This document shows, in pieces, positions 37,463 to 52,692 of a DNA stretch of 64,000 nucleotides (the stretch's first letter is position 1; every line of letters begins with the position of its first letter). The stretch is from positions 8,809-72,808 of the forward strand of contig CAZWZL010000005.1 in assembly GCA_964638515.1 (NCBI GenBank), in the 5' to 3' direction. Below the pieces are notes generated by a model. The model was not told the DNA's origin. It ran no database searches and saw nothing but the letters and a program-made list of their open reading frames with translations. The stretch is from an uncultured Phycisphaeraceae bacterium. GTDB taxonomy: Bacteria; Planctomycetota; Phycisphaerae; Phycisphaerales; UBA1924. The position numbers and the translations under genes were made by a program.

Positions 37463-39493
37463 TCAGCCCTCCTCGCTCTCGCGAAGCTTCGCCAGCACGC
37501 CGTAATCCTCCAGCGTCGTCGTGTCTCCCACCTGCTCCTTTCCCTCGGCGATGGCTCGCAGCAGCCGGCGCATGATCTTCCCGCTGCGCGTCTTGGGCAA
37601 TGCCGCTGAGAACCGCACCATGTCGGGCCTGGCGATCGCTCCGATCTCGTTCGCGACGTGCGCCCGAAGAGCCTCGCGCAGCGCCTCATCGGCCCCGCCC
37701 TGGTGGGCCTCCTTGAGTGTGACAAACGCTGCGATTCCCGTGCCCTTGATGTCGTGCGCGATCCCCACGACCGCGGCCTCCGCCACAGCGGGGTGGCTCA
37801 CCAGCGCGCTCTCCACCTCCATCGTGCCGAGCCGATGGCCGGCCACATTGATCACGTCGTCCACACGACCCATGACCCAGAAATACCCATCGGCGTCGCG
37901 CCGAGCCCCGTCTCCGGCGAAGTAGAACGGCTCGCCCTTCGCGTTCTTCACGCGCGACCAATACGTGTCGAGATACCGCTGGCGATCGTTCAGAATCCCG
38001 CGCAGCATTCCAGGCCAAGGCTTGCGCACGACGAGCAGACCCCCCTCGTTTGCGCCGGTCTCGATGCCCTGTTCGTTGACCACCGCGGCATCCACGCCCG
38101 GGAACGGAAGCGTGCAGCTTCCGGGCTTCGTGGGCGTGGCTCCGGGCAGCGGCGTGATCATGTGGCCGCCCGTTTCGGTCTGCCACCAAGTGTCAACGAT
38201 CGGACACCGGCCGCCCCCGATCGCCTGCTGATACCACATCCAAGCCTCGGGATTGATGGGCTCACCTACCGTTCCGAGCACTCGCAAGGACTGCATGTCG
38301 TGCTTGCGGGGATGCTCGTCCCCCCACTTCATGAACGCTCGGATCGCGGTCGGCGCGGTGTAGAACTGCGTCACCTTGTGGCGCGCGATGATCTCCCAGA
38401 AGCGATCACGTGCGGGCCAATCCGGAGCGCCCTCGTACATCACGCTCGGCACACGATTGGGCAGCACGCCGTACACCACGTACGAATGCCCCGTGACCCA
38501 TCCACAATCCGCGGTGCACCAGAACACTTCCCGGTCAGAGCCGTGCAGATCGAAGACCCATTTCGAAGTGAGGTACGCCCAAACCATGTAGCCCCCGGTC
38601 GCGTGCATGATTCCCTTGGGCTTGCCGGTCGTGCCCGACGTGTAGAGCACGAACAGCAGGTCATCGCTGCTCAACGGCTCGCACGCGCATTCATCGGATG
38701 CGCTCCCCACGACATCATGCCACCAATGGTCGCGCTTGCCGCCATGGTCGCTCGACGGCTCGCCGTGCCAGGACGTTTCGTTGCCGCACCTCCTGAGCAC
38801 GACGACGTGCTCCACGCCCGCCGACTGCGCACACGCCGCATCGACGTTGTCCTTGAGGGGAACGACCTTGCCTCGCCGCCATCCGCCGTCGGCCGTGAGA
38901 ATCACTCGGCTCGTGCTGTCATGCACACGATCCGCGATCGCGGAGGCCGAAAACCCTCCGAAGATCACCGAGTGCGCCGCCCCGATCCGAGCGCAGGCGA
39001 GCATGGCGATCGCCAGCTCCGGGACCATCGGCATGTAGATCGTGACGATCTCGCCCTTCTTCACACCGAGCGCGCGAAGCGCGTTCGCCACACGCGACGT
39101 CTCGCGCTTGAGGTCGAGGTAGGTCAGCCGTCGGATCTCCGGGCCGCGCTCCCCGTTCGGCTCTCCTTCCCAGATGATCGCCGTGCGATCCCCATGCCCC
39201 GCCTCCACCTGCCGATCCACACAGTTGAAGCACAGGTTGGTCGTTCCGCCCACGAACCAGCGCGCGTCGTACGGCGCGGCTGGGTTCATTTCCAGCGTGT
39301 TCGACCACGGCGTGAACCAATGCAGCTCTCGCGCGATCTCGCCGAAGAATTCTCCCGGCCGGCTCAGCGATCGCTCGTGAAGCCGGCGGTAGTCACCCAA
39401 CGAGCCGACATGGGCCCGCTTGGAGAACCCGCCCTCGGGCGCAAAGCGACGGTCTTCCCGCAACAGCGACTCGATGGCTCCATGCTCGCTCAT
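37463..39493 (-). CDS. acs: Acetyl-CoA synthetase (AMP-forming)
   Basis: Real part of track ORF 37463..39829, from ATG 39493 (SD GGAGG): [17 protein letters not shown]..., [29 protein letters not shown]. 676 aa. Confidence 0.95.
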
Positions 39494-39542
39494 GCCGGCG
39501 CCTCCTTCCGCACCCCTGACGCCAGCATACCCTCGACCCCCA

Positions 39543-40367
39543 TCAGAACCGCTTGTGCGCCTCCCGCTCCATCGGCCCTCGCAGACCCATGATGCTGCGC
39601 GCAAGAGAGATGTCCGCGGGCTTCGTGATCTTGATGTTCCTCGGATCGCCCTCCACCACCACGACAGGCTCGCCGAGCCGCTCCACCAACTGCGCATCGT
39701 CCGTGCTTCGGACGTCCTCCTGTCCGTACGCGCGTTCGAAGAGTTCGCGCTCGAACACCTGAGGCGTTTGCGCCATCGAAAGCCCCTCACGCGACACCGT
39801 TTCCTGAACGGCCCGAGCCCACCCGCCACCAGACACGCCCCCGGACGCGCCCCCGGACGCGCCGAGAATCGCGGCCAGGGGATCCGCGCTCATCTCCGAA
39901 ATCTCCGCCCCGACGCGTTTCAGCGTGTCGGGAACATCAATCGCCGGAACAACGGCGGGGAATCGCGCCGCGGCCGCGAACACACGCCCGATCAACTCCG
40001 CGCTCGCCGCCGGGCGCGCCGCGTCGTGCACCGCCACATGGGAGCACGCGCTCCACGCGGCGCCGTGGTCCCTTCTCGCAAACTCCAGCGCGTTCTTCAC
40101 CGACTCAAAGCGGTGCGCCTTTCCACCCATGCACACCGACGCCCCGATCAACGCCAGCCGGTCGCCGTGTCGGAGCCGAAACTCCTCGAAGCCATCACAA
40201 GGCCCCGCCACGATCACCAGCCCCGTGTCGTCCCGCCCCGTGAACAACTCCACCGTGCGCTGCAGCACGGGCCTGCCTCCCAGATCCTCGTCGATCTTCG
40301 ACTTGCCGCCAAAGCGGAGAGACGCGCCCGCCGCCGGGATGATCACCGCGATTCGCATCTCACCCAT
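39543..40367 (-). CDS. ispD: 2-C-methyl-D-erythritol 4-phosphate cytidylyltransferase
   Basis: [42 protein letters not shown]. Contains a Gly/Ser-rich insert. An alternative ATG lies at 40358. Confidence 0.85.
39836..39859. repeat. Perfect 12-nt tandem duplication (gcccccggacgc x2, with a degenerate third copy) inside ispD
   Basis: Encodes [14 protein letters not shown] on the minus strand. It is in frame, so slippage would change the loop length without a frameshift. Confidence 0.8.
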
Positions 40368-40508
40368 CCTACCGAACCGCGTTCCGGCCCTTTCCTATCG
40401 GACCCATCCCGCCGTTACCCCAGCCCGTTTAAGTCATGCCCGCCATTGGCCGACCGCTATGCGGAATGCGAATGCAGGGCGGGGATCCATCTCGCCCCGG
40501 CGTCGATC

Positions 40509-41144
40509 ATGGGAGCCCGGATGCTGGCACCAGGCATCAACACGTATGTCCGCCTCGCCGGGGAATCACCCGGCGATAAGCCGCTGCGCACCGCGCTGGT
40601 GCTCGATCGCCGTGAGAACCTCTGCACGGTGGAGATTGAGAACGCGGAGAATCCGCCCGCCCCCGGGGACACGATCTGCTTCTTCTTCGACGTGGAGTCC
40701 CGCTTTTCCCAGCAGAAGGCCCGCGTTGGTCGCTGCCTGGTCCGCGGCTCCAAGTGCATAATGTCGGTGGCGCTGCTCGATCAGCCCGTCCCCGCGGACA
40801 ACCGACAGTCGTTCCGCGTCAGCTCCGCCACCGCCGACTTGTGCGCCCGCCTCAACTGCGCACAGAACTGCCCCGTGATCGATGTCTCGTTCACCGGATT
40901 CGCCATCGTCACCGACGCGTTCTTCGAGATCGGCGACTCTGTCACCGTGGCCATCAGCTTCGAGGGCCGAATCTACAACGGCGAGGCCACGATCAAAAGC
41001 GCGAACCCCGTCGACGGCGCGCTGACTCGATATGGGCTCCACGTGCCCCCCCATCGAGTCTCCACGACGCTCCAAAAGGGCCTGCAAGCCGTCTCCAGCT
41101 CGATCCAGCGCGTGCAGCTCCGTCGGCTCTCCCGAGGCTCCTGA
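40509..41144 (+). CDS. PilZ-domain (c-di-GMP-binding) protein
   Basis: Real part of track ORF 39420..41144, from ATG 40509. DNRQSFRV (RxxxR-like) ... VIDVSFTGFAI (D/NxSxxG) motifs. 211 aa. Confidence 0.65.
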   Translation: MGARMLAPGINTYVRLAGESPGDKPLRTALVLDRRENLCTVEIENAENPPAPGDTICFFFDVESRFSQQKARVGRCLVRGSKCIMSVALLDQPVPADNRQSFRVSSATADLCARLNCAQNCPVIDVSFTGFAIVTDAFFEIGDSVTVAISFEGRIYNGEATIKSANPVDGALTRYGLHVPPHRVSTTLQKGLQAVSSSIQRVQLRRLSRGS

Positions 41145-41204: not shown

Positions 41205-41558
41205 GGGGCCGAATTGGTTTCGACCGGATAAGCGCTTTGCATCGTGGCGCGTCGCGGCGCACGCATGCCCGCGTCATCAAGCGTGCACACACATAACTGC
41301 CAACACGCAGTTTGCTCTCGCTGCCTGATATTTCAGGCGGCTCGGCGGGGTCCCACGCCCGATAGGACCCCTGCCGAACGACCATCGGGCTGGCGTCCGT
41401 CCTGAGGCTCGGGGGACGGAAGCGAGAACACGCCGCGCCTGGGACCGACGGGACGCTGCCGATGGCGGCCCGGCGGGCTGAGATCAAACCACCGGATACA
41501 CGCGTAGAGGCGGTGCGAAGACTGTCACGGGACGGGGGTTCGATACCCCCCGGCTCCA
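41205..41558 (+). ncRNA. ssrA: tmRNA (SsrA), tag reading frame ANTQFALAA
   Basis: 5' GGGGCCGAATTGGTTTCGACCGG. 3' GGACGGGGGTTCGATACCCCCCGGCTCCA. Acceptor stem GGGGCCG/CGGCTCC includes a G3-U pair, discriminator A, and CCA is not encoded. Internal ORF GCC AAC ACG CAG TTT GCT CTC GCT GCC TGA at 41299-41328. Confidence 0.9.
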
Positions 41559-41701
41559 TTCTCACAACGTCGCGCGGACAGTGCGGTCCGGCGCGGATAC
41601 AGTTATTTGGACGGTCGCTCGGCGGAGCCGCGCGAGATTCGCTCAATCCACACCGCGAGGTTTGGAGACTCGCGGCCAGCTTCGCCGATGGAACTGCCAC
41701 T

Positions 41702-42502
41702 GTGGACCGCCGCATCCTCATTGCTCCTCTGACCGACCCCCATCTGCTCGACGAGCCGCTTGAAGCCGTCGCGCGCGACGCCACGCTGTCGCGTCGAGGT
41801 CTCTTGCGCACCGTCGCCGGCCTGCTCGCCGCGGGAGGCGCGGTCGCCGCCCTCACCGGCTGCGCTGGTGGGAGCGCGAGCGCCTCCCTGCCCGGACCAA
41901 AGTGGCCCGAGCCCGAGCCGTACAGGCCTCAACCCCGACCATCGGTTCCACCGCGCGCCACGCCGCCCAGCACCGGTCCCGGCGGCGTGATCCCGCGCTC
42001 CGCCTGGGCCAAGAGCAACCCGATCACGTCGCGCATGGATCGCATGCTGCCCGTGCGCAAGATCACGATTCACCACACGGCCATCCCGGCCTCCGGCATG
42101 CACAACCGGCGGGATGTCGCGGCACAGATCGAATCGATCCGCCAAGCCCACGTCCATCGCAAGGGCGAGCCGTTCGGCGACATCGGCTACCACTACATCG
42201 TCGACCCCATGGGCAACGTGTGGGAAGGGCGAACGCTCGCGTATCAGGGCGCCCACGTGTCCAAGCAGAACGAGAACAATCTCGGCATTGTCTGCCTCGG
42301 GAACTTTGAGATGGAGCGCCCCAACGACGCTCAGGTGCGCGCCTTGCACGCGTTCACCGCGTCGCAGATGCGCCGGTTCAACGTCTCCCTTCGAGACGTC
42401 CGTACGCACCGCGAAATGGCGCAGACGGCCTGCCCAGGCCGCAATCTGCAGCCGGTCATGAACATGGCGCGCGCCCGCGGCGGCGTGCTCGCCATGGGCT
42501 GA
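41702..42502 (+). CDS. N-acetylmuramoyl-L-alanine amidase (Amidase_2/PGRP fold), Tat-signal lipoprotein
   Basis: SRRGLLRTVAGLLAAGGAVAALTGC (twin-Arg plus lipobox). ITIHHTA, GDIGYHYIVDPMGNVWEGR, AHVSKQNENNLGIVCLGNF, CPGRNL. The start is uncertain (GTG 41702); the track start at 41462 lies inside the tmRNA. Confidence 0.8.
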   Translation: MDRRILIAPLTDPHLLDEPLEAVARDATLSRRGLLRTVAGLLAAGGAVAALTGCAGGSASASLPGPKWPEPEPYRPQPRPSVPPRATPPSTGPGGVIPRSAWAKSNPITSRMDRMLPVRKITIHHTAIPASGMHNRRDVAAQIESIRQAHVHRKGEPFGDIGYHYIVDPMGNVWEGRTLAYQGAHVSKQNENNLGIVCLGNFEMERPNDAQVRALHAFTASQMRRFNVSLRDVRTHREMAQTACPGRNLQPVMNMARARGGVLAMG

Positions 42503-43450: not shown

Positions 43451-43935
43451 GCGAGTCGTCGCGCCATCTTGCGGTGCGGAATGAGATCCCACTTCGTCGG
43501 CCCCACACCGATGTCCTCATACCCCAGACGCGTGTAGAACGGCACGGCCTCCGCGCGGGCGTCCATCCAGATCGACGGCCGACCCCGCGCCCTCGATTCC
43601 TCCTCGAGCGAGCCCAGCAGAATCCGCCCGACACCCGAGCCCCGCCGATCCGCATCGACCGCGAAGTACCGCATCTGGGCGATCGGGCGCGCGCAGCACG
43701 CCGGAACCTCCGTCGGATCGAGATCGAGCCGAGCAACCCCGATCACCTCCAGGCCGTCAAGCACGAGCCGATGCAGCACGTCCGGACGCGCACGGGGCGA
43801 ATCCAGCTCGGATAACGCGCACGACGCCGGCAGGCCGTACGGGTCGTAGAGGTTGCGCACGCGGCACGCCACGTACGCCCGCCAAAGCGCATCCGAGTCG
43901 GGAGCGGCAATGACGAGTTCGGACTTCACATCCAT
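43447..43935 (-). CDS. GNAT family N-acetyltransferase
   Basis: From ATG 43935: MDVKSELVIAAP...MRYFAVDADRRGSGVGRILL (acetyl-CoA motif)...FYTRLGY. 162 aa. Confidence 0.8.
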   Translation of the reverse strand: MDVKSELVIAAPDSDALWRAYVACRVRNLYDPYGLPASCALSELDSPRARPDVLHRLVLDGLEVIGVARLDLDPTEVPACCARPIAQMRYFAVDADRRGSGVGRILLGSLEEESRARGRPSIWMDARAEAVPFYTRLGYEDIGVGPTKWDLIPHRKMARRLA

Positions 43936-44171
43936 GTCCGAATTCCAAGCGCGCGCAGCACGCACCAACCCTTCGCGGCCTCGAAAATCGCAAACCCGCC
44001 GATGGCGACCAGCGCCGCCGTCATCGTCAGGCCAACCCATCTGGGGCTCTCGACCACGATTCCAACGGCGATCCCGCTGGAGACCAGCGCCGCTCCGATC
44101 ATCCCCCGCGCGCACCGGCCACGTCGATCAAGATTGCACTTCAAACCCGCGTTTGCCGCTCGCTGGCTCAT
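43926..44171 (-). CDS. DUF2892 (YgaP C-terminal-like) small membrane protein
   Basis: 81 aa. KCNLDRRGRCARGMIGAALVSSGIAV....LVAIGGFAIFEAAKGWCVLRALGIRT matches the N..ER..R...G / two-TM / C-x-L-Y-x-L-G pattern of this family, as I recall it. Confidence 0.6.
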   Translation of the reverse strand: MSQRAANAGLKCNLDRRGRCARGMIGAALVSSGIAVGIVVESPRWVGLTMTAALVAIGGFAIFEAAKGWCVLRALGIRTWM

Positions 44172-44956
44172 GGAATGGCACGCCTGGCCTCATCCCCGAA
44201 CGAAGCCGGCGGGGCCTGCCCGTTGAAGAGAAGAAGCTCGATCGTATATACCCGCCACGCTCCGTCCTGATCACGTCGCCAGTCCAGCTGCCACCACGTC
44301 AGCGACGGCCCCAGGCGTCCGCCCGTTCGGACCCGCAGTCGGGTCCGTGCCGAGGTTTCGGACCCAGCCGACGCGTGCCCCGACGGCACGGCCACGCCCT
44401 CCAGACTCACCCGTTCCGGGAACAGACGCGCCGCCCGAAGCACCACCGATCGGTCATCCCCGCCCGACGCCCCGCCGGTCGAGCCCAGCTTCAGGTACAG
44501 CGTCGGAGCCAGCGCGTCTCCGGCGGAGCCCGCGTCTCCCCGACCCACCGCTCGAGCCAATTCGAGCGACCGGGCGATCACGGCCTCCCTGGGCGTCTCG
44601 ACAGCGATGGCCAAGCCCACCAGGCCGACCGCAGCCATCGGCCCGAGGATGCCCGTCCAAGTGGACGCCCGCTCCCGCCCGGCTCGGTAGAGCCGCCACG
44701 CCGCCAGCAGCGAAAGCACAATCAACGCGGCCGCAGGCGCCACGGGCTCCTCGAGCCCGAAGTGCGTCAACATCCCGGACGCCGGGAGTCGAGGGGGCTC
44801 CGACCAAGGCGCCTGGACGGACTGAGCCGAGGCGGCTTCGGAACCGGCCAGAAACACCCCGGCGACGGTGTGGACAAGGAGCCTCCAAGGACCGATATCC
44901 ACTAGGGGCTTGATGTGGGCTGTGAGTCCGTTGGGGTGACGGGCTGGCGGGCACAT
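44168..44956 (-). CDS. Hypothetical membrane protein (about 3 TM helices plus a soluble C-terminal domain)
   Basis: From ATG 44956 (SD AGGAA): MCPPARHPNGLTAHIKPLVDIGPWRLLVHTVAGVFLAG... The C-terminus (WWQLDWRRDQDGAWRVYTIELLL) resembles an NTF2-like strand. The longer track ORF would run into the divergent gene. Confidence 0.55.
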   Translation of the reverse strand: MCPPARHPNGLTAHIKPLVDIGPWRLLVHTVAGVFLAGSEAASAQSVQAPWSEPPRLPASGMLTHFGLEEPVAPAAALIVLSLLAAWRLYRAGRERASTWTGILGPMAAVGLVGLAIAVETPREAVIARSLELARAVGRGDAGSAGDALAPTLYLKLGSTGGASGGDDRSVVLRAARLFPERVSLEGVAVPSGHASAGSETSARTRLRVRTGGRLGPSLTWWQLDWRRDQDGAWRVYTIELLLFNGQAPPASFGDEARRAIP

Positions 44957-45018
44957 GGATTGTTCCTGCGCGCAGGCGCGATGCGGTGTTCCGGTTCTAT
45001 AGGCGAGGACGAGGGCGA

Positions 45019-48000
45019 ATGACGGCAACAAGTCCACAACAGACCAACAACGCGACGACCTTGGCGCCCGAGACGCCGGGCCTCCTCGAGCGAAACCTGG
45101 CGGCCCTCTCCCGCCTGTCGCCCGAATCAGCCTTGGAAATCGGGCGGGTCTCGCCATCAGGCGAGTATCGCTTCCTCCGCAGCGGAGACGGGGGCCTGAC
45201 GGCCGAGATCCAAGGACGCCCCGTCGCGAGCCGCCGAAACGCGATCGCCGAGGGCGAACGGCTGGCGGCCGGCGTGGACATCAAGACCGCGGCCGTCGTG
45301 GTCGTGATCGGCTTCGGGGTCGGCCACCACGTCCGCGCCATCGCGGAAAAGCTGCAACGGACCGGCTTGGTGGTGGTGTTCGAGCCCGACGCGGCGCTCC
45401 TCAAGGGCACGCTCGAACGCGAAGACTGCGCGTCCTGGATGACCGCATCGAATCTCATCATCGTCACCGATGAATCGGACGCCGCCGTGCTGGGCACGGC
45501 TCTCCGGCGCCACGAGGCCATGCTCGGGCTCGGGGTAACGATCGTGGAGCACCCGGGCTCGACGACCCGCATCGGGGACCGAAGCCGCGCGTTCCTGGAG
45601 ACGTTCGCGCAGGTCGCCGCAACGGCGCGCACAGCGCTCGTGACCACCATGGTGCAGACCGAATCGACGGTCCGCAACGTGCTGATGAACCTGGACTACT
45701 ACGCCGGCGCGCCGGGCATTGCCGAGCTGCGGGAGTGCGCGATCAACCGGCCCGCCGTGGTCGTATCCGCCGGGCCCAGCCTCGAGCGCAACATGCGTTT
45801 GCTCGCACGAGATGGCGTTCGAGATCGATGCGTGATCATCGCCGTGCAGACCGCGCTCAAACCGCTGCTGCGCGCCGGTATCCGGCCGCACTACGTCGTC
45901 GCGCTCGATCACCATGAGATCTCCCGACGCTTCTACGAGGGCTTGCGATCCGAAGACGTGGCCGGTGTCACGTTGGTCGTGGAGCCCAAAGCCAACCCGG
46001 CGATCCTGCAGACGTTTCCCGGGCCGATCCGCTGCGCGCGCGAGGAATACCTCGACCTCGTCCTCGGCGAGCGGCTCTTTCGAGATCACGGCTCCGTCCC
46101 GCCGGGATCGACGGTGGCGCACCTGGCCTACTACCTCGCCCGGTTCATGGGCTGCGATCCGGTCGCGCTCATCGGACAGGACCTCGGATTCACCGACGGA
46201 CAGTACTACGCGAGCGGCGCGGCGATCCACGAGGTGTGGGCGGGCGAGCTGAACCCGTTCAACACGCTCGAATCGCTGGAGTGGCAGCGCATCGTCCGCG
46301 GACGCGCGAGCCTGCACCGCGTGACCGACCACCTCGGGCGCTCGATCTACACCGACGAACAGATGCGCACCTACCTCGCGCAGTTCGAGCGGGATTTCCG
46401 CAGCGACGAGTCGAAGGGCCTGACGATCATCGATGCCACCGAGGGCGGCGTGCGCAAGGCCCACACCACGCGCCGAACGCTCGCCGAGTTCCTCGAAGAG
46501 CACGCCCCGGAGGATGCGCCCTCCCTGCGGCTGCCGCCACCGCCGACCGCCGAGCTCAATCGTGACGCGGTCCGCAGCGCCGCCGCACGGGTTCGAGAAG
46601 TTCGCCGAGGGGTCTGGCGCATCGGCGATCTGTCCCGCAAGGCCTCCGCGCTGCTCGCGCAGATGCTCGAGCATCACGAGGATCAGCCCCGCGTGAACCG
46701 CCTCATCGGCAAGGTGCACGCGCTCCGCGACGAAGCCGTGTCCGAAGCCACGGCCTATCACCTGGTCCACCGATTCAACCAAACCGGCACCTTCCGGCGC
46801 GCACGAGCCGATCGAGCCATCATCATGAGCGAGGATGAGCCGGAATCGGCGCAGCAGCTCAAGAACATCGAGCGCGATCTGCAGAACGTCCGCTGGCTGG
46901 GCGAAGCCGCCGACGCGCTGGGCGAACTGCTCGATGTCACCGCAAGAGCGATGGAGGGCGGACCCAAGCGCACACGCGACCTGATGACCGAGAGCCAGAG
47001 CGATCCGGACAACACCGACGCGACCGTCATGAAAGAGCGTCCGCGAGTAGCCGCGCTGGTCTCCGCCCGATTCGACCACGGCGCGCTGGGAGGCACTCGG
47101 ACGCTCGGGCCGCGCCCTTGGACCCATGGGCGCGCGGCCCTCGCCCTGACCGTTGAACGCATCGCGCGAACGCCCGGGTTGGACCGTGTGATCGTGCTCA
47201 CGGACGACCCCGTCGCCGCATCCAAGTGTCTCGACCAGACGTCCACGCGAGTCCCCGTGGAGATCGAGCCCGTGGCGCTCGCCGCATGGGAAAAGCGAGA
47301 GGACGCCATCCGAGCCGGACGCGTGTTCGCGGGATGGTGCTGGCGTGGCGGCCCCGGGCATCTCTCGGCGTACGACGAGGCCATCCTGCCCCGCGCCATG
47401 AGCGACGTGATGGAGTCGCGCGCACTCTCCGCCGCACTGGTGCTGGGAGGCGATTGGTGCGCCGCGGACCCCGCGATCGCGGGCGCGTTGATCGAACGGC
47501 ACGCCGAGATGCCCGAGAGATTCAGGGTCGCGTTCACGCAGGCTGCGCCCGGGCTCGCGCCGGCGCTGATCGACCGTCATGTCATGACCGATCTGGCAAG
47601 GGTGACGGAACTCGATGACGCTGGCGCATTCGCGAGCTTCGGCGGACTGATCGGCTACGTGCCCATCCGACCCAAGGTTGACCCCATCGCGCAGCCCGTG
47701 TGCCTGGTCATCGACCCCGCGGTCCGCGACGCGATGGCCCGCTGGATCGCGGACGGAAGCGAGGGAGAGTCCCTGCTCGCCCACGCCAGCGAACGGCTCG
47801 GGACGCGTTTCTCCGAAGCCTCCGCCCTGGAACTCGTCCAGGCGGCCGCCGATGCGCTGCCGGAGGCGCCCGGGCACGTCATCTTCGAACTCACCACGGC
47901 ACGACTCACGAGCGGCCGGCGCGCCGCATGGGCGCGCGGTCGGGCGATCGCGGCTGACCCCGGCGAGCCGATTCCCACGCGCCAAGCCGACATTTCCAGG

Positions 48001-48693
48001 ATCGAGCACGTGATACGAGCCCTGAGCGAGGTGCGCGATGACCTGGTCGTGACCTTCGGCGGGAGCGGTGACCCGACCCTGCATCCATCATTTGGCGAGG
48101 CGGTGGAAGCAGCGAAGCGAGCCGGAGCCCGGGCCGTGCATGTGCGGACCGACCTGCTCGCCGAGGATGCTGATATCGCCGCGCTTCTGCGCACGGACGT
48201 GGTCAGTGTGGACCTTCTGGCGGACTCTAAGGAGACCTACGAGGCACTGACCGGAGTGGACGGGTTTGACCGTGTCACGGGCAACATGGAGCGTTTGATC
48301 AACGCCCGGCGCCAAGATCCGGACGTGTGGCTGGGCGCACCGTGGGTCATGCCTCGGATGACCCGCTGCGACGCGGTGTACGAGGAACTGGAGTCGTTCT
48401 ACGACCGGTGGCTGCTGTGGCTCGGCTGCGCGACGCTCGACCCGTTGCCCGATGACTCCGCCCCCGACCGAATCGCGAGACTGCCGCTCCCTCGAGCCGC
48501 GGCGACCCGTTTTGCGCGAGACCGCATGCTCGTGCTCGCGGACGGTCGGGTGGTTGCGGATGAGCGCGACGCGGAGGACGCGAGCTCCGTCGGCAACGCG
48601 TTCGATGAGCCTCCGCTGGACGTGTGGCGCCGACTGGTGGCCGCGCGCGAAGCCGGCGGCGAGCCCGCCCGCGCGTGGACGATGTACGCGTGA
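45019..48693 (+). CDS. 1224-aa fusion: Maf-type DUF115 glycosyltransferase, cytidylyltransferase-like domain and a Cys-less radical-SAM/SPASM-like domain
   Basis: Residue numbers follow the track ORF. aa 250-400: NRPAVVVSAGPSLERNMRLL..IIAVQTALKPLLRAGIRPHYVVALDHHE..ALIGQDLGF (DUF115/Maf core). aa ~685-900: AALVSARFDHGALGGTR..LDRVIVLTDDP (NTP-transferase-like). aa ~960-1235: VIFELTTARLTSGRR..VVTFGGSGDPTLHP..VHVRTDLL..VVSVDLLADSKETYEALTG..MLVLADGRVVADERDAEDASSVGNAFDEPPLDVW. I prefer ATG 45019 to GTG 44986. Confidence 0.8.
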   Translation: MTATSPQQTNNATTLAPETPGLLERNLAALSRLSPESALEIGRVSPSGEYRFLRSGDGGLTAEIQGRPVASRRNAIAEGERLAAGVDIKTAAVVVVIGFGVGHHVRAIAEKLQRTGLVVVFEPDAALLKGTLEREDCASWMTASNLIIVTDESDAAVLGTALRRHEAMLGLGVTIVEHPGSTTRIGDRSRAFLETFAQVAATARTALVTTMVQTESTVRNVLMNLDYYAGAPGIAELRECAINRPAVVVSAGPSLERNMRLLARDGVRDRCVIIAVQTALKPLLRAGIRPHYVVALDHHEISRRFYEGLRSEDVAGVTLVVEPKANPAILQTFPGPIRCAREEYLDLVLGERLFRDHGSVPPGSTVAHLAYYLARFMGCDPVALIGQDLGFTDGQYYASGAAIHEVWAGELNPFNTLESLEWQRIVRGRASLHRVTDHLGRSIYTDEQMRTYLAQFERDFRSDESKGLTIIDATEGGVRKAHTTRRTLAEFLEEHAPEDAPSLRLPPPPTAELNRDAVRSAAARVREVRRGVWRIGDLSRKASALLAQMLEHHEDQPRVNRLIGKVHALRDEAVSEATAYHLVHRFNQTGTFRRARADRAIIMSEDEPESAQQLKNIERDLQNVRWLGEAADALGELLDVTARAMEGGPKRTRDLMTESQSDPDNTDATVMKERPRVAALVSARFDHGALGGTRTLGPRPWTHGRAALALTVERIARTPGLDRVIVLTDDPVAASKCLDQTSTRVPVEIEPVALAAWEKREDAIRAGRVFAGWCWRGGPGHLSAYDEAILPRAMSDVMESRALSAALVLGGDWCAADPAIAGALIERHAEMPERFRVAFTQAAPGLAPALIDRHVMTDLARVTELDDAGAFASFGGLIGYVPIRPKVDPIAQPVCLVIDPAVRDAMARWIADGSEGESLLAHASERLGTRFSEASALELVQAAADALPEAPGHVIFELTTARLTSGRRAAWARGRAIAADPGEPIPTRQADISRIEHVIRALSEVRDDLVVTFGGSGDPTLHPSFGEAVEAAKRAGARAVHVRTDLLAEDADIAALLRTDVVSVDLLADSKETYEALTGVDGFDRVTGNMERLINARRQDPDVWLGAPWVMPRMTRCDAVYEELESFYDRWLLWLGCATLDPLPDDSAPDRIARLPLPRAAATRFARDRMLVLADGRVVADERDAEDASSVGNAFDEPPLDVWRRLVAAREAGGEPARAWTMYA

Positions 48694-49460
48694 ACGCGCC
48701 CGCCATCATCTTGGCCCGAGGGGGCAGCAAGGGCGTTCCGGGCAAGAACGTGGCCCCGGTGGCCGGGCGGCCCTGCATCGCGTGGACCATCGCTGACGCC
48801 TTGGCTTCACGCGGCGTTGCGCGAATCGTGGTTTCGACGGACGACGACGCGATCGCCCGCGCGGCCTGGAACGAGGGAGTGGAGGTGGCATGGCGGCCCG
48901 GCGATCTCGCCACCGACACCGCTCGCGTCGATGACGCGGCAAGACACGCCGTGCAATGCCTGGAAGCGGGCGAAACCGTGCGCCAGCCGGACGACCGCGG
49001 CGCGGGCGGTCTGCGGCTGAGCCCGGGTGACGCCATCGTGCTGCTCTACGGCAACGTGCCCGTGCGCCCGCCAGGGCTCATCGATCGTGCGCTGGAGATG
49101 CTCGAACGAACCGGCGCAGACTCGACGCAGTCCTACGCCCGGGTGGGCAAGCACCATCCGTGGTGGCAGGCTCGCGTGAACGAATCGACCGGAGAGGTTC
49201 GCGCATGGGAAGGTGAGACGCTCAATCACGGCGTGTTTCGCCGGCAGGACCTCCCCCCCGCGTTCGTGCCGGACGGCGGAGTGCTGGTGGTGCGCCGACG
49301 CGCACTGTTCCTGGAGATCGAGGGCGTCGAACGCGGCCCGCACGCGTTCTTCGGGAAAGACCGGCGAGGAGTCCTCACCGGCGAAGGCGAGGTCGTGGAC
49401 GTGGATTCGCCCATCGATCTGGTCGTGGCCGACGCAACGTTGCGGGAGAAGCGCCGATGA
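48690..49460 (+). CDS. neuA: Acylneuraminate (nonulosonate) cytidylyltransferase
   Basis: GTG 48690 overlaps the upstream stop (GTGA). VNAPAIILARGGSKGVPGKNVAPVAGRPCIAWTI..VVSTDD. 256 aa. Confidence 0.85.
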   Translation: MNAPAIILARGGSKGVPGKNVAPVAGRPCIAWTIADALASRGVARIVVSTDDDAIARAAWNEGVEVAWRPGDLATDTARVDDAARHAVQCLEAGETVRQPDDRGAGGLRLSPGDAIVLLYGNVPVRPPGLIDRALEMLERTGADSTQSYARVGKHHPWWQARVNESTGEVRAWEGETLNHGVFRRQDLPPAFVPDGGVLVVRRRALFLEIEGVERGPHAFFGKDRRGVLTGEGEVVDVDSPIDLVVADATLREKRR

Positions 49461-50518
49461 ACATCGGAACGCGCCGGATCGGAGCGCCGGGCTCGGTGTA
49501 CGTGATCGCGGAGCTGGGCGTGAATCACGACGGCTCCGCTGAGCGCGCACTGGAACTGGTGGACGCCGCGGCCGATGCCGGCGCCGACGCCGTGAAGACG
49601 CAGTGGTTCGAAGCCGAGCGACTGATGTCGTCCGCGTCAACGCTTGCCGCGTACCAGCGCGACGCCGGCGAGCAAAGCCCCGTGGCCATGCTGCGCCGGC
49701 TGCAGCTGTCCCGGGAAGGCATGGCGAGCGTGGCGGAGCGCGCCAGGCGTCGGGGCCTGCACGCGATCATCACGGTGTTCTCGCACGAACTGGTCCGCGA
49801 TGCGGGGTCGATCGGCTGGGACGCCTACAAGACGGCCTCGCCCGACATCGTGCATCGCCCGTTGCTCGAAGCGATCCTGGCGACCGGAAGACCGCTCATC
49901 CTCTCCACCGGGGCCGCCACGATGGAAGAGGTCGGCCGGGCGGTGCGGTGGGTGGCGACGGCTCGCGATCGGCTGGCGCTGCTGCAGTGCGTCTCGTCAT
50001 ACCCAACACCCCGCGAAGACGCCGCGCTCGGGGGCATCGGCGCGCTGGCGGACGCCTTCGGGCTGCCGACGGGCTACTCGGATCACACACGCGAGTTGGA
50101 CACCGGCGCGTTGGCGGTGGCATGCGGCGCACGTCTGCTGGAGAAGCATCTCACCTATGACCGCGCCGCCAGAGGGCCCGATCACGCGGCATCGCTCGAC
50201 GCCGATGGGTTCGCCCGATATGTGAGAGGCGCTCGCGCCGCGTGCAAGGATCCTCCGATCGCAACCATCGACGACGTTCGCGTGGGCGCCAGAGAAAAGC
50301 GCGTGCGACCCTGCGAGCAGGACGTGCGCACGGTCTCGCGCCAATCGCTCGTCACGCGACGGCCTCTGAATCGCGGCGATGTGCTGCGACTCGAAGATCT
50401 CACCGTCAAACGCCCGGGCGCCGGGCTTGGCCCGTGGCGGCTGCACGAGATTGTTGGCTCGCGTGTGGCGCGGCCTGTCGCGGCTGATGCGCCGCTGACA
50501 CCGGAGGACCTGGAATGA
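49457..50518 (+). CDS. neuB: N-acetylneuraminate (nonulosonate) synthase with a C-terminal SAF domain
   Basis: 353 aa. VIAELGVNHDGS, DAVKTQ, YKTASPDI, LILSTGAATMEE, LLQCVSSYPTP, GYSDHT. The SAF-like tail is SLVTRRPLNRGDVLRLEDLTVKRPG. Confidence 0.9.
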   Translation: MNIGTRRIGAPGSVYVIAELGVNHDGSAERALELVDAAADAGADAVKTQWFEAERLMSSASTLAAYQRDAGEQSPVAMLRRLQLSREGMASVAERARRRGLHAIITVFSHELVRDAGSIGWDAYKTASPDIVHRPLLEAILATGRPLILSTGAATMEEVGRAVRWVATARDRLALLQCVSSYPTPREDAALGGIGALADAFGLPTGYSDHTRELDTGALAVACGARLLEKHLTYDRAARGPDHAASLDADGFARYVRGARAACKDPPIATIDDVRVGAREKRVRPCEQDVRTVSRQSLVTRRPLNRGDVLRLEDLTVKRPGAGLGPWRLHEIVGSRVARPVAADAPLTPEDLE

Positions 50519-51669
50519 CCGGACGTCGTGCCCGCATCGCCGTCGCCACGGGCTCGCGCGCCGAGTTCGGCCTGCTCGCGCCCGTGATGCGCGCGATCCG
50601 GGCGCACCCGCGGCTGGAGTTGCTCACAATCGTGTCGGGCTCGCACCTGGTGGGCGGCGCTGAGACCTGGCGCGAAGTCGAAGAGGCGTTCGGGATCGAC
50701 GCCCGCGTCGAGATGCAGCGCGAACGGCTCACCGGACGCCTTGAAGACGCGCGCGCGCTCGGCCGGGGAATCGAGGGCATGGCCGGCGCCATCGAATCCC
50801 TTGCTCCCGATTGGATGGTCGTGCTGGGTGACCGCATCGAAGCGCTCGCCGGCGCCGTGGCCGCGAGTGTGGCGGGGCTCCCCGTGGCCCACCTTCACGG
50901 CGGAGACCGCGCCGAAGGCGTCGCGGACGAAGCCATGCGTCACGCCATCACCAAGCTGTCTCACTTGCATCTCGCGGCCACGCCCGCATCCGCCGAGCGG
51001 ATCATTCGAATGGGCGAGCTTCCCTCGCAGGTGCACGTCATCGGCTCGCCCGCGATGGACGGCCTGCACGACATCGCGGCGATGGACGACGAGGCCTTCT
51101 CGCGCTTGGGAAGCCCGCGGGTCGTGTTCCTGATGCACCCGATCGGGCGCGCCCCGAGCGAGGAGCGCATCGCCGCCACCACGGCGCTGCACGCCGCGCG
51201 GCGCCGAACGGTCATCGCGATGGCGCCGAATCTCGACCCCGGTCGAGAGGGCATCATGGAGGCCCTGCACGACCTCGGCGCCCCCACGCTCAGCCACCTT
51301 CGACGCGACCAGTGGATCAGCCTCCTCAAGCGCGTGGCTCAGGAAGGAGGCGTGCTGATGGGCAATTCCTCTTCCGGGCTCATCGAGGCCTCGGCGCTTC
51401 GCCCGCTGCCTTTAGCCGCGCTGGATATCGGACCTCGTCAGAACGGCCGGGAGGCGCCCGACAGCGTGGTGCACGTAGACGAGACTTCCGAGGCCATCCG
51501 GGCCGGCCTGGATCGGACGGAAGGCCTCTCAGCCGCTTGGCGGGCGGGCCAGGAGCCCCCCGAGCACCCCTATGGGGATGGGAGGGCGGGCGAGAAAGCC
51601 GCGGAAGCGATTGCAGCCATTCCGCTGGAGGCTGCTCGAACGCTCGTCCGAAAGCGAAACGCCTATTAG
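50515..51669 (+). CDS. neuC: UDP-N-acetylglucosamine 2-epimerase, hydrolysing type
   Basis: 384 aa. IAVATGSRAEFGLLAPVM, VVLGDRIEALAGAVAA, VAHLHGGDRAEG..DEAMRHAITKLSHLH. ATGA overlap with neuB. Confidence 0.85.
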   Translation: MTGRRARIAVATGSRAEFGLLAPVMRAIRAHPRLELLTIVSGSHLVGGAETWREVEEAFGIDARVEMQRERLTGRLEDARALGRGIEGMAGAIESLAPDWMVVLGDRIEALAGAVAASVAGLPVAHLHGGDRAEGVADEAMRHAITKLSHLHLAATPASAERIIRMGELPSQVHVIGSPAMDGLHDIAAMDDEAFSRLGSPRVVFLMHPIGRAPSEERIAATTALHAARRRTVIAMAPNLDPGREGIMEALHDLGAPTLSHLRRDQWISLLKRVAQEGGVLMGNSSSGLIEASALRPLPLAALDIGPRQNGREAPDSVVHVDETSEAIRAGLDRTEGLSAAWRAGQEPPEHPYGDGRAGEKAAEAIAAIPLEAARTLVRKRNAY

Positions 51670-51807
51670 GGGCGAGAAGGACGGGGAATCGAGCCCGGGG
51701 CCCGACGCGCACCAAAGTCACGGGCGTGAACCGTCGATCTCCAATGGGGACGGACGACGTGCGATCGCGCGCGGTCCGAACCCCCGAACTCGGAGGAAGT
51801 GACCCCC

Positions 51808-52692
51808 ATGGGCGTTGCATCAACAGACACGAACACGGTGGTTGCCACGGCGGTGCAGGAAATCAATCACATCGCCACCCTGCCCGAGATCACCCTCCGC
51901 ATCATCGAACTTGTCGAATCGCCGTCCTCCACGGCTCAGGACCTGCAGACGGTCATTCGAAGCGACCCCGCCCTCTGCAGCCGCGTGCTCAAGGTGGTGA
52001 ATTCCGCGTTCTATGGGCTGCCCGGGCAGATCGCCTCCATCGAGCGCGCGATCGTGCTGCTCGGCCTCAATGCCGTCAAGAACATCGCGGTAGCCGCGTC
52101 CCTCGTGAAGCTCTTCCGCGGGGGTGAACTCTCCCCCCACTTCTCCGCCCGCGAGCTTTGGACACATTCCATCGCCACGGCCACGGCCGCGAAGACTCTC
52201 GCCGACGACCTCAAGATCGGCATGGCCGACGAAGCATTTCTCGGCGGACTGATTCACGATCTCGGCGTGATGGTCGAGCTCCAGTACGATCGGCAGAAGC
52301 TGATCAAGGTGCTGGACATGCTCAACATCGACTCCCAGCACATCCCCCATGCCAACATGCGAGCGATCGAAACAGAGATCTTCGGCGCCACGCACGAGCA
52401 GTTCGGCGCCGGCCTGAGCCAGCGGTGGAAGTTCCCGCCCGCGCTCGTCAACGTCACCGGTCATCACCACGAGCCCCTGCGCCTCCCCGAGGAGTCCCGC
52501 ACGCTTGCGTGCCTGATCTACGTAGCCGATCGAATCTCGGCCATGGCGGGACAAGGCTTCCGGCTCGACCTCGACAACCTCACCGCCGACTCAAACGTGC
52601 TGTCCCACCTCGGCATCGAGACGTCCAAGCTCGATGAGATGGCGGCCAACCTGCCCGAGCAGATGCAGGAAGTGAAGCGCCTGCTGTCTTGA
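51808..52692 (+). CDS. HDOD-domain signalling protein
   Basis: LPEITLRIIELVESPSSTAQDLQTVIRSDPALCSRVLKVVNSAFYGL, LWTHSIATA, GLIHDLG. ATG 51808 follows GGAGGAAG. Confidence 0.85.
   Translation: MGVASTDTNTVVATAVQEINHIATLPEITLRIIELVESPSSTAQDLQTVIRSDPALCSRVLKVVNSAFYGLPGQIASIERAIVLLGLNAVKNIAVAASLVKLFRGGELSPHFSARELWTHSIATATAAKTLADDLKIGMADEAFLGGLIHDLGVMVELQYDRQKLIKVLDMLNIDSQHIPHANMRAIETEIFGATHEQFGAGLSQRWKFPPALVNVTGHHHEPLRLPEESRTLACLIYVADRISAMAGQGFRLDLDNLTADSNVLSHLGIETSKLDEMAANLPEQMQEVKRLLS

Follow-up and report, generated by a model that had tools for sequence, protein, structure and literature searches.

Why would a Maf-type glycosyltransferase, a representative of the main bacterial route for sialic-acid-like sugars on flagellin, extend at its C-terminus into 546 residues that resemble a cytidylyltransferase followed by an enzyme of the radical S-adenosylmethionine (SAM) type deprived of its cluster-binding cysteines? 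The question is raised by one gene in a 64,000-nucleotide stretch of DNA from an uncultured Phycisphaeraceae bacterium (contig CAZWZL010000005.1; hereafter the window, whose first letter is position 1). An original prediction, made by a model from the letters and their open reading frames (ORFs), had described this gene as a fusion of three parts heading a nonulosonic acid cluster, whose last part would retain the radical SAM fold without any iron-sulphur (Fe-S) ligand, and had proposed for it a binding, scaffold or regulatory role, which is plausible and predicted only. Far from being a one-off oddity, the fusion is how the gene normally occurs in a large clade of Phycisphaerales, and in a sister lineage the same C-terminal module is encoded by a gene of its own next to Maf. 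We consider it somewhat probable that the protein represents, in fused form, a system for protein glycosylation that has two components and is specific to Phycisphaerae, and that its C-terminal module serves as a cofactor-less specificity or adaptor unit.

The fusion and its three parts

The gene is a single uninterrupted ORF on the + strand (44986-48693), of 1235 codons when counted from its GTG, the start of the longest ORF, from which all residue numbers below are counted. An NCBI protein 100% identical to the fusion protein (P0001) begins at the ATG at 45019 and is 1224 amino acids long, and this ATG is likely the start of the gene. The sequence blocks on which the original prediction was built all occur in this frame (AGPSL, ALDHHE, IGQDLGF, AALVSARF, VIVLTDDP, FGGSGDPTLHP, VRTDLL, VSVDLLADSKETYEALTG, LADGRVV and VGNAFDEPPLDVW). 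An antisense ORF of 975 amino acids overlaps the gene (45157-48084, - strand) and is most likely a shadow ORF, given the G+C content of about 68-70% near the fusion gene.

A full-length search recovered more than 120 full-length homologues of 1140-1270 amino acids with 43-69% identity, and those that carry names belong to Phycisphaerales or Planctomycetota. In a scan of species-representative genomes the module was encoded in 172, nearly all of them labelled Phycisphaerales, Phycisphaerae or Planctomycetota and a few 'uncultured bacterium' only, and an exhaustive profile search gave 583 clusters at 50% identity with E <= 1e-30. One contig labelled 'Cyanobacteria bacterium CYA' (L021, RHKP01000023.1) carries a typical Phycisphaerales fusion operon and is probably mis-binned.

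The original prediction had itself allowed for an artefact, whether separate genes joined by misassembly or a frameshift, or cysteines lost to sequencing errors, and this now seems vanishingly unlikely. Of 78 related loci that could be assessed, 77 carry the Maf part and the module in a single frame uninterrupted by any stop; the loci are independent assemblies, and a merger or frameshift is thereby ruled out. None of the 202 fused and none of the 120 stand-alone family members has the cysteine motif CxxxCxxC, which rules out sequencing error as the cause of its absence. Moreover, the full-length homologues were drawn from NCBI, JGI, ENA and Logan, and the whole chain is confidently modelled by AlphaFold2 (AF2). 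What might still be read as a sign of artefact is the lone locus with a single in-frame stop between Maf part and module (L066, 7844-11248), a stop that may stem from a sequencing error, mark a pseudogene or reflect a fusion that was split again, together with the fact that separate Maf and module genes do occur in the sister lineage.

The claim that the N-terminal part is a complete Maf unit holds. The best PDB match of the near-full-length model in Foldseek is the Maf protein 5mu5 of Magnetospirillum magneticum (E 2.4e-17, 715 aligned columns), and the separate Maf genes of the sister lineage encode proteins of 643-659 amino acids. The N-terminal 675 residues of the fusion have the DUF115/MptE-like core and the overall fold in common with 5mu5 and with Maf-1 and Maf-2 of Shewanella. 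At the sequence level, the core matches PF01973 with an E-value of 7.5e-36 (123.9 bits against a cut-off of 34.6, Pfam), the Maf N-domain PF20157 is matched weakly and under its 23.5-bit cut-off (13.6-18.7 bits), and phmmer matches 5mu5 itself with an E-value of 4.4e-4. The NCBIfam PseD model gives 56 bits for the fusion protein against a cut-off of 670.

For the second part, described earlier as an NTP-transferase-like segment, it is the fold that lends support. Foldseek matched this cytidylyltransferase-like (CT-like) domain to the Leptospira cytidylyltransferase 6oew (template modelling score 0.65-0.67, target-normalised), to KdsB (1gqc) and to IspD. Searched alone, the segment (residues 695-965) had no Pfam match at E <= 10 and none to PF02348 (CTP_transf_3), and an hhalign comparison of the domain with the NeuA of the window was weak (63 columns, probability 11%). 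The nucleotide-binding signature, which reads ARGGSKGVPGKN in the co-encoded NeuA, corresponds in the family consensus to xVDxxxxxLGxxRxL, and the N-terminal CTP-binding signature (ARxGSKG..K) is not conserved in that consensus; the invariant residues of the domain include R725, W786, R787, D797, W824, G856, Y891, D899 and R914. The domain therefore has its fold in common with the cytidine monophosphate (CMP)-sugar synthetases KdsB, NeuA and 6oew, but lacks the CTP_transf_3 match and the NeuA-type signature, and to judge from these residues it is probably not an active CMP-sugar synthetase. As a candidate for the synthetase of the pathway it was rejected, since a canonical NeuA is encoded directly downstream and the signature residues are absent.

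From an alignment of 26 sequences, AF2 modelled residues 690-1235 with a predicted local distance difference test (pLDDT) score of 91.3 and a predicted template modelling (pTM) score of 0.91, and a model of residues 36-1235 reached 92.4 and 0.88, the sole segment below pLDDT 50 being a 5-residue linker (model 641-645). In Foldseek searches with the latter, 5mu5 was followed by radical SAM enzymes and cytidylyltransferases. The models thus confirm the three-part architecture of Maf, CT-like domain and radical-SAM-like barrel with twitch-like tail. Because pTM is 0.88 over 1200 residues and only the 5-residue linker has low confidence, the longer model also suggests that the module packs against Maf in a defined, rigid way rather than hanging on a flexible tether.

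Loss of the iron-sulphur ligands

The radical SAM barrel and twitch/SPASM tail that had been read from the spacing of conserved blocks were recovered by fold comparison. Foldseek matched the module model to SkfB (E 2e-8), then to SuiB, DesII, BlsE, viperin-like, EpeE, BtrN, anSME and SpeY structures, with E-values of 2e-8 to 1e-4 for SkfB, SuiB, DesII, BlsE, viperin-like, BtrN and anSME. In the AF2 model the barrel displays the strand/helix alternation in DSSP, and the tail consists of strands 491-494, 499-501 and 512-515 and a helix at 521-535 (numbering of the module model). By sequence profile, residues 997-1108 align with positions 24-140 of the 166 of the Pfam profile PF04055 (Radical_SAM) at 25-28 bits against a threshold of 29.5, an alignment that starts downstream of the profile's cysteine motif, and some homologues exceed the threshold (for example P0225, 33.8 bits). 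PF13186 (SPASM) had no Pfam match in the query, and a sequence-profile search of the PDB with the module gave marginal matches to radical SAM proteins and IspD (E 0.03-0.3), which made the structure comparison necessary. The barrel, the GGE-type motif, the hairpin-helix tail and the block spacing are common to the query and to true radical SAM/SPASM-twitch enzymes (LI_RS06695 of Lawsonia intracellularis, SkfB, SuiB, DesII, BlsE, BtrN, anSME). In contrast, these enzymes have the CxxxCxxC motif of the [4Fe-4S] cluster and the cysteines of the auxiliary cluster, and the query has neither.

Beyond the missing CxxxCxxC, no CxxC...C motif of any kind was found among the 202 members of the fusion family, and the frequent cysteine columns in their C-terminal part are scattered. 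At the radical SAM site after beta1, the alignment reads ELTNYCNLSCKFC in true radical SAM proteins, ELTPRRLVTGPVT in the stand-alone Planctomycete form and ELTTARLTSGRRA in the query. The original prediction was therefore right about the loss itself, which extends to the whole family, and one residue off in the AxxxSxxR register that it gave: the first, second and third cysteines correspond to R973, G977 and A980. At the former first-cysteine position, R973 reaches 92-100% conservation in the fused as well as in the stand-alone family, and G1026, G1028 and D1029 of the GGE-type motif are invariant in both. In the tail, true radical SAM proteins carry four cysteines in the pattern C...C...CxxC, where the query has T1174 and D1192 and then ends early, with no CxxC pair. 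As the query has neither CxxxCxxC nor the auxiliary-cluster cysteines, the module would, on its sequence, be unable to bind the radical SAM cluster and is not a radical SAM enzyme in the defining sense.

As to whether the three parts ever occur separately, the single ORF of the original prediction stands for the related loci considered above and does not extend to a sister lineage, where Maf and module are adjacent, separate genes. A protein of 552 amino acids (P0208) is a genuine stand-alone module, with 117.6 bits to the NCBIfam model TIGR04321 'spiro-SPASM protein' (profile positions 88-506) and a passing score for Pfam SPASM (PF13186; 24.3 against 21.5 bits). Among the matches listed with it are 119 further stand-alone proteins of about 505-640 amino acids from Phycisphaeraceae or Planctomycetota, some of which bear the JGI name 'spiro-SPASM protein'. 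A Maf gene lies directly upstream of the stand-alone module gene of about 550 codons in all five loci examined, NeuA and NeuC homologues lie downstream in four of them, and the gene order in this split lineage is the domain order of the fusion. In one locus of the unfused lineage (L089:7783-9546), NeuA and NeuB are themselves fused into a protein of 587 amino acids with CTP_transf_3, NeuB and SAF domains, a second gene-fusion event in the same type of operon.

The stand-alone proteins retain what the fused ones have lost in the tail: the four tail cysteines are invariant in 119-120 of 120. Since they also lack CxxxCxxC, the radical SAM site was lost before the fusion, and the alignments indicate that the fused lineage later lost the remaining four tail cysteines as well. 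At 48 residue positions the two forms carry the same residue, each with a conservation of 90% or more (of 57 such alignment columns, the other nine are shared gaps). They include W786, R787, G788, D797, E798, D823, W824, R914 and R919 in the CT-like part and linker, and E968, R973, G1026, G1028, D1029, T1055, Y1085, W1120 and E1136 in the barrel. The two lineages document the gene-fusion history of a two-component module, with split neighbours in one and a single fused gene in the other.

The nearest cluster-bearing relatives that we found, by tblastn of a stand-alone relative against plasmids, are true radical SAM proteins of about 300 amino acids from Lawsonia intracellularis plasmid 2 (L086:7986-8885) and a deltaproteobacterium (L087:7977-8927). 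Both carry CxxxCxxC and the same four tail cysteines and align to TIGR04321 profile positions 227-508, and both lie in sugar-modification clusters, with an acetyltransferase, a DegT aminotransferase, methyltransferases and AsnB as neighbours.

The original prediction had pointed, in spirochaetes, to an architecture of a cytidylyltransferase-like domain followed by radical SAM/SPASM, and this architecture exists as TIGR04321. For 25 of the 26 aligned, diverse family members that were scanned, it was the module's top NCBIfam match, and all 26 matched it (best E 5e-20); many of them also weakly match genuine radical SAM/SPASM families. The query scored 56-61 bits over profile positions 261-483 of 510, and the stand-alone relatives 105-137 bits over positions 86-506, all under the cut-off of 250 bits. 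The layout of CT-like, radical SAM and SPASM parts, a unit of about 510 residues, is common to this model and the stand-alone form, and in the query the fold supplies what lies beyond the aligned positions. By contrast, the profile expects the four cysteines of the tail and rewards the three of CxxxCxxC in exactly one register, and none of these seven is present in the query. The family is curated, functionally uncharacterised and named for spirochaetes; no spirochaete member appeared among the homologue lists, which were filled with Planctomycete sequences, or in the genome scan, which held Planctomycete-type metagenome-assembled genomes only. Another NCBIfam model, TIGR04347 'pseudo-SAM/SPASM protein', was matched weakly and partially in 6 of the 26 module sequences; the likeness is one of family name only, and the name implies that NCBI curators already list a radical SAM/SPASM-like family as 'pseudo'. 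That family is not known to be connected with Maf or with glycosylation.

The cysteine expectation of TIGR04321 was probed indirectly, with engineered variants of one protein (P0358). Unmodified, P0358 scored 137.0 bits. Changing its four tail cysteines to alanine lowered the score to 112.9 bits (-24.1), while grafting three cysteines in the register of the true enzymes raised it to 147.4 bits (+10.4) and the full CNLRCIYC motif in the same register to 153.8 bits (+16.8); three cysteines in three other registers gave 134.6-136.6 bits (-0.4 to -2.4). As a control, grafting lifted the score for the true radical SAM profile TIGR04317 from 31.5 bits to 50.1 and 58.8. We infer from these scores that the curated family expects the tail cysteines and, less strongly, the radical SAM motif, so that both Planctomycete lineages would be degenerate relatives of TIGR04321 and not members.

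More tentatively, as a possibility rather than an expectation, the Maf-module fusion may be a 'Rosetta stone' that ties TIGR04321 to Maf-type nonulosonic acid protein glycosylation and records how a radical SAM enzyme acting on sugars was turned, step by step, into a glycosyltransferase partner without cofactor, be it an adaptor or newly catalytic. The order that we propose leads from a true radical SAM protein with CxxxCxxC and four auxiliary cysteines, through a stand-alone form without CxxxCxxC, to a fused form without any of these cysteines. We found no published function for the spiro-SPASM architecture, though a curated family model exists, and no description in the literature of the fusion, of the stand-alone form next to Maf, of Fe-S ligands lost step by step or of a link between spiro-SPASM and Maf. 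Taken singly, the parts belong to known kinds (Maf, the radical SAM/SPASM fold, the curated and uncharacterised spiro-SPASM family), and databases already hold such proteins under uninformative names. The labels 'DUF115 domain-containing', 'radical SAM protein' and 'SpsF' can now be corrected. The spiro-SPASM-type architecture would gain a testable context in Maf and nonulosonic acid glycosylation, and the Planctomycete proteins would offer, in clean natural stages, a way to study what new use a radical SAM scaffold is put to once its clusters are gone.

A proposed role of the module in nonulosonic acid transfer

The translational coupling to neuA that had been noted as a GTGA overlap is indeed present: the stop codon of the fusion gene (TGA, 48691-48693) overlaps a GTG at 48690 that opens a canonical NeuA N-terminus. 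Four-nucleotide ATGA overlaps follow between neuA and neuB (49457-49460) and between neuB and neuC (50515-50518), and the order Maf-module, NeuA, NeuB, NeuC is kept in nearly all related loci. From this arrangement the fusion gene is predicted to be co-transcribed with a minimal NeuC/NeuB/NeuA pathway. NeuC scores above its equivalog cut-off and NeuB below its own, and no genes of the di-N-acetylbacillosamine type are found in the operon; the sugar could be of the N-acetylneuraminic acid (Neu5Ac) or legionaminic type. Linkage to CMP-nonulosonate biosynthesis genes is a trait that the fusion gene has in common with known Maf systems. It differs from them in having no adjacent flagellar genes, in its taxon, Planctomycetota, and in its appendage: the known ones, on which Maf depends for its specificity, are a TPR domain or a four-helix GlfM partner, where the fusion has the CT-like domain and the cysteine-less radical-SAM/twitch unit.

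In the mechanism that we favour, the GT-A-like Maf part would transfer a CMP-activated nonulosonic acid, made by NeuC, NeuB and NeuA, onto Ser/Thr of a protein acceptor. The C-terminal 546 residues would descend from a spiro-SPASM-type protein (CT-like domain, radical SAM barrel and SPASM/twitch tail) and take part in the transfer step as a non-radical unit, giving specificity or acting as an adaptor. The CT-like domain would be the binding site of the CMP-sugar donor, and the former substrate-binding barrel and the twitch tail would help to position donor or acceptor. Such a role would parallel that of Maf-1's C-terminal TPR domain and of the GlfM partner of Maf-2 in Shewanella, each of which is required for flagellin binding (bioRxiv 10.1101/2023.12.03.569772), and a second preprint describes Maf enzymes as able to transfer Neu5Ac and 3-deoxy-D-manno-oct-2-ulosonic acid (bioRxiv 10.1101/2020.06.03.131540). 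If so, the module would be a third, unrelated kind of Maf partner, CT-like and radical-SAM-like without Fe-S clusters, which one Planctomycete lineage has as a fusion and another as a neighbouring gene. Most of the organisms are uncultured, which places the impact at the level of hypothesis.

Selection bears on whether the module does anything at all. Nei-Gojobori ratios of nonsynonymous to synonymous substitution rates (dN/dS) for 12 independent locus pairs were 0.07-0.34 for the Maf part, 0.09-0.32 for the CT-like domain and 0.14-0.38 for the radical-SAM/twitch-like part, values indicating that all three domains are under purifying selection and ruling out a decaying pseudodomain. It is also improbable that the module is an evolutionary relic, purely structural or stabilising for Maf and without ligand binding. 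Such a relic would agree with the stepwise loss of all Fe-S ligands and with the lower conservation of the module across loci (about 38% identity to the query, against about 50% for Maf), but dN/dS lies at 0.1-0.4 in both module domains, comparable to Maf, and invariant polar residues of surface type are common to both lineages. Moreover, the module is kept as a separate gene of about 550 codons in the sister lineage, where a folding appendage would not be expected to persist alone.

Purifying selection together with the many invariant polar residues leaves room for a new, non-radical enzymatic activity, and the main rival of an adaptor is accordingly a repurposed enzyme, in which the barrel, the CT-like domain or both would tailor the nonulosonic acid or its CMP derivative before transfer, for example by epimerisation, dehydration, acyl or amidino transfer, or hydrolysis. 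We judge this rather unlikely. Selection on the module is as strong as on Maf, and among 26 diverse modules 32 columns are invariant, unusually dense in Arg, Asp, Glu and His, with an Arg fixed at a former cluster-cysteine position. The GGE-type motif, which contacts SAM in radical SAM enzymes, is still invariant, many of the top structural matches act on sugars or nucleotides (DesII, BlsE, BtrN, SpeY, viperin), and the closest true radical SAM relatives sit in sugar-modification clusters with DegT aminotransferases, acetyltransferases and methyltransferases. All this would suit an enzyme; however, we know of no precedent for a catalytically active radical SAM barrel that lacks its cluster, the minimal NeuC/NeuB/NeuA pathway bears no sign of a needed tailoring step, and the fusion to Maf with its predicted rigid packing suits a role in the transfer step.

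Several observations weigh against the adaptor role that we prefer. The many charged residues that are invariant in the barrel and its surroundings (E968, R973, D1029, H1052, R1054, D1076, R1124, R1127, D1129, D1152 and R1162) would suit an active site no less than a binding site. The CT-like domain has no significant sequence match to CMP-sugar synthetases, so that nucleotide binding is a conjecture, and the rigid packing is drawn from a single score, pTM. The data show the architecture, the cysteine loss, the selection, the linkage of the genes and the history of their fusion, whereas what the module binds, as well as the identity of acceptor and sugar, is something that we infer. In particular, flagellin, the acceptor of every characterised Maf, is assumed here by family analogy only: the window yielded no flagellin to tblastn or to a motif search, and of the 87 loci fetched a single one (L041) had flagellin-like genes within 10 kb.

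Coordinates and neighbouring genes

Table 1. Features of the fusion gene and of the operon that it heads, in positions of the window.
Feature	Position	Strand	Basis or remark
Whole gene, fusion of Maf, CT-like and cysteine-less radical-SAM/twitch parts	45019..48693	+	identical protein P0001, homologues, AF2 model
Complete Maf unit (N-terminal domain, central MptE-like/DUF115 Rossmann domain, C-terminal helical domain)	45019..47010	+	residues about 12-675
MptE-like/DUF115 catalytic core of Maf	45676..46197	+	residues 231-404, Pfam
Short, low-confidence linker from Maf to C-terminal module	47011..47025	+	residues 676-680, pLDDT below 50
CT-like domain (GT-A/NTP-transferase fold)	47053..47742	+	residues about 690-919, fold match
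Radical-SAM-like partial (beta/alpha)6 barrel without cluster-binding motif	47860..48447	+	residues about 959-1154; Pfam, Foldseek, DSSP
Degenerate CxxxCxxC site (R973-L-T-S-G977-R-R-A980)	47902..47925	+	alignment with true radical SAM proteins
Retained GGE-type motif after beta2 (GGSGDPTLHP)	48061..48084	+	aligns to GGEPLL of PDB radical SAM enzymes
Twitch/SPASM-like tail (beta-hairpin and helix)	48448..48690	+	residues about 1155-1235; DSSP, TIGR04321 alignment
neuA (CMP-nonulosonate synthetase)	48690..49460	+	PF02348, E 9.8e-19
neuB (nonulosonate synthase, NeuB and SAF domains)	49457..50518	+	Pfam, NCBIfam
neuC (hydrolysing UDP-GlcNAc 2-epimerase type)	50515..51669	+	TIGR03568, 274 bits against 235.9

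Directly 3' of neuC lies a gene for an HDOD/HD-domain protein (51799-52692, + strand). An HDOD protein often comes next in related loci and is kept downstream in most of those with enough flank, with 50-62% identity (71% for a copy at a contig end), which suggests that this signalling-type protein is functionally linked to the glycosylation operon.

On the other side, just upstream of the fusion gene, an ORF of 350 amino acids (43853-44905, + strand) had no Pfam or NCBIfam match and no tblastn relative in 82 related loci. Further upstream are genes for a PilZ-domain protein (39420-41144, + strand) and a putative N-acetylmuramoyl-L-alanine amidase (41462-42502, + strand), the latter with a weak, sub-threshold match to a twin-arginine translocation signal and recurring upstream in three other loci (L010, L072 and L074). 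Beyond the HDOD gene, the segment 53220-56270 holds more genes of envelope and glycan type, which encode a VCA0040-like protein resembling undecaprenyl-phosphate translocases (- strand), an NAD-dependent epimerase/dehydratase (+ strand) and a PagL-like lipid A deacylase (- strand).

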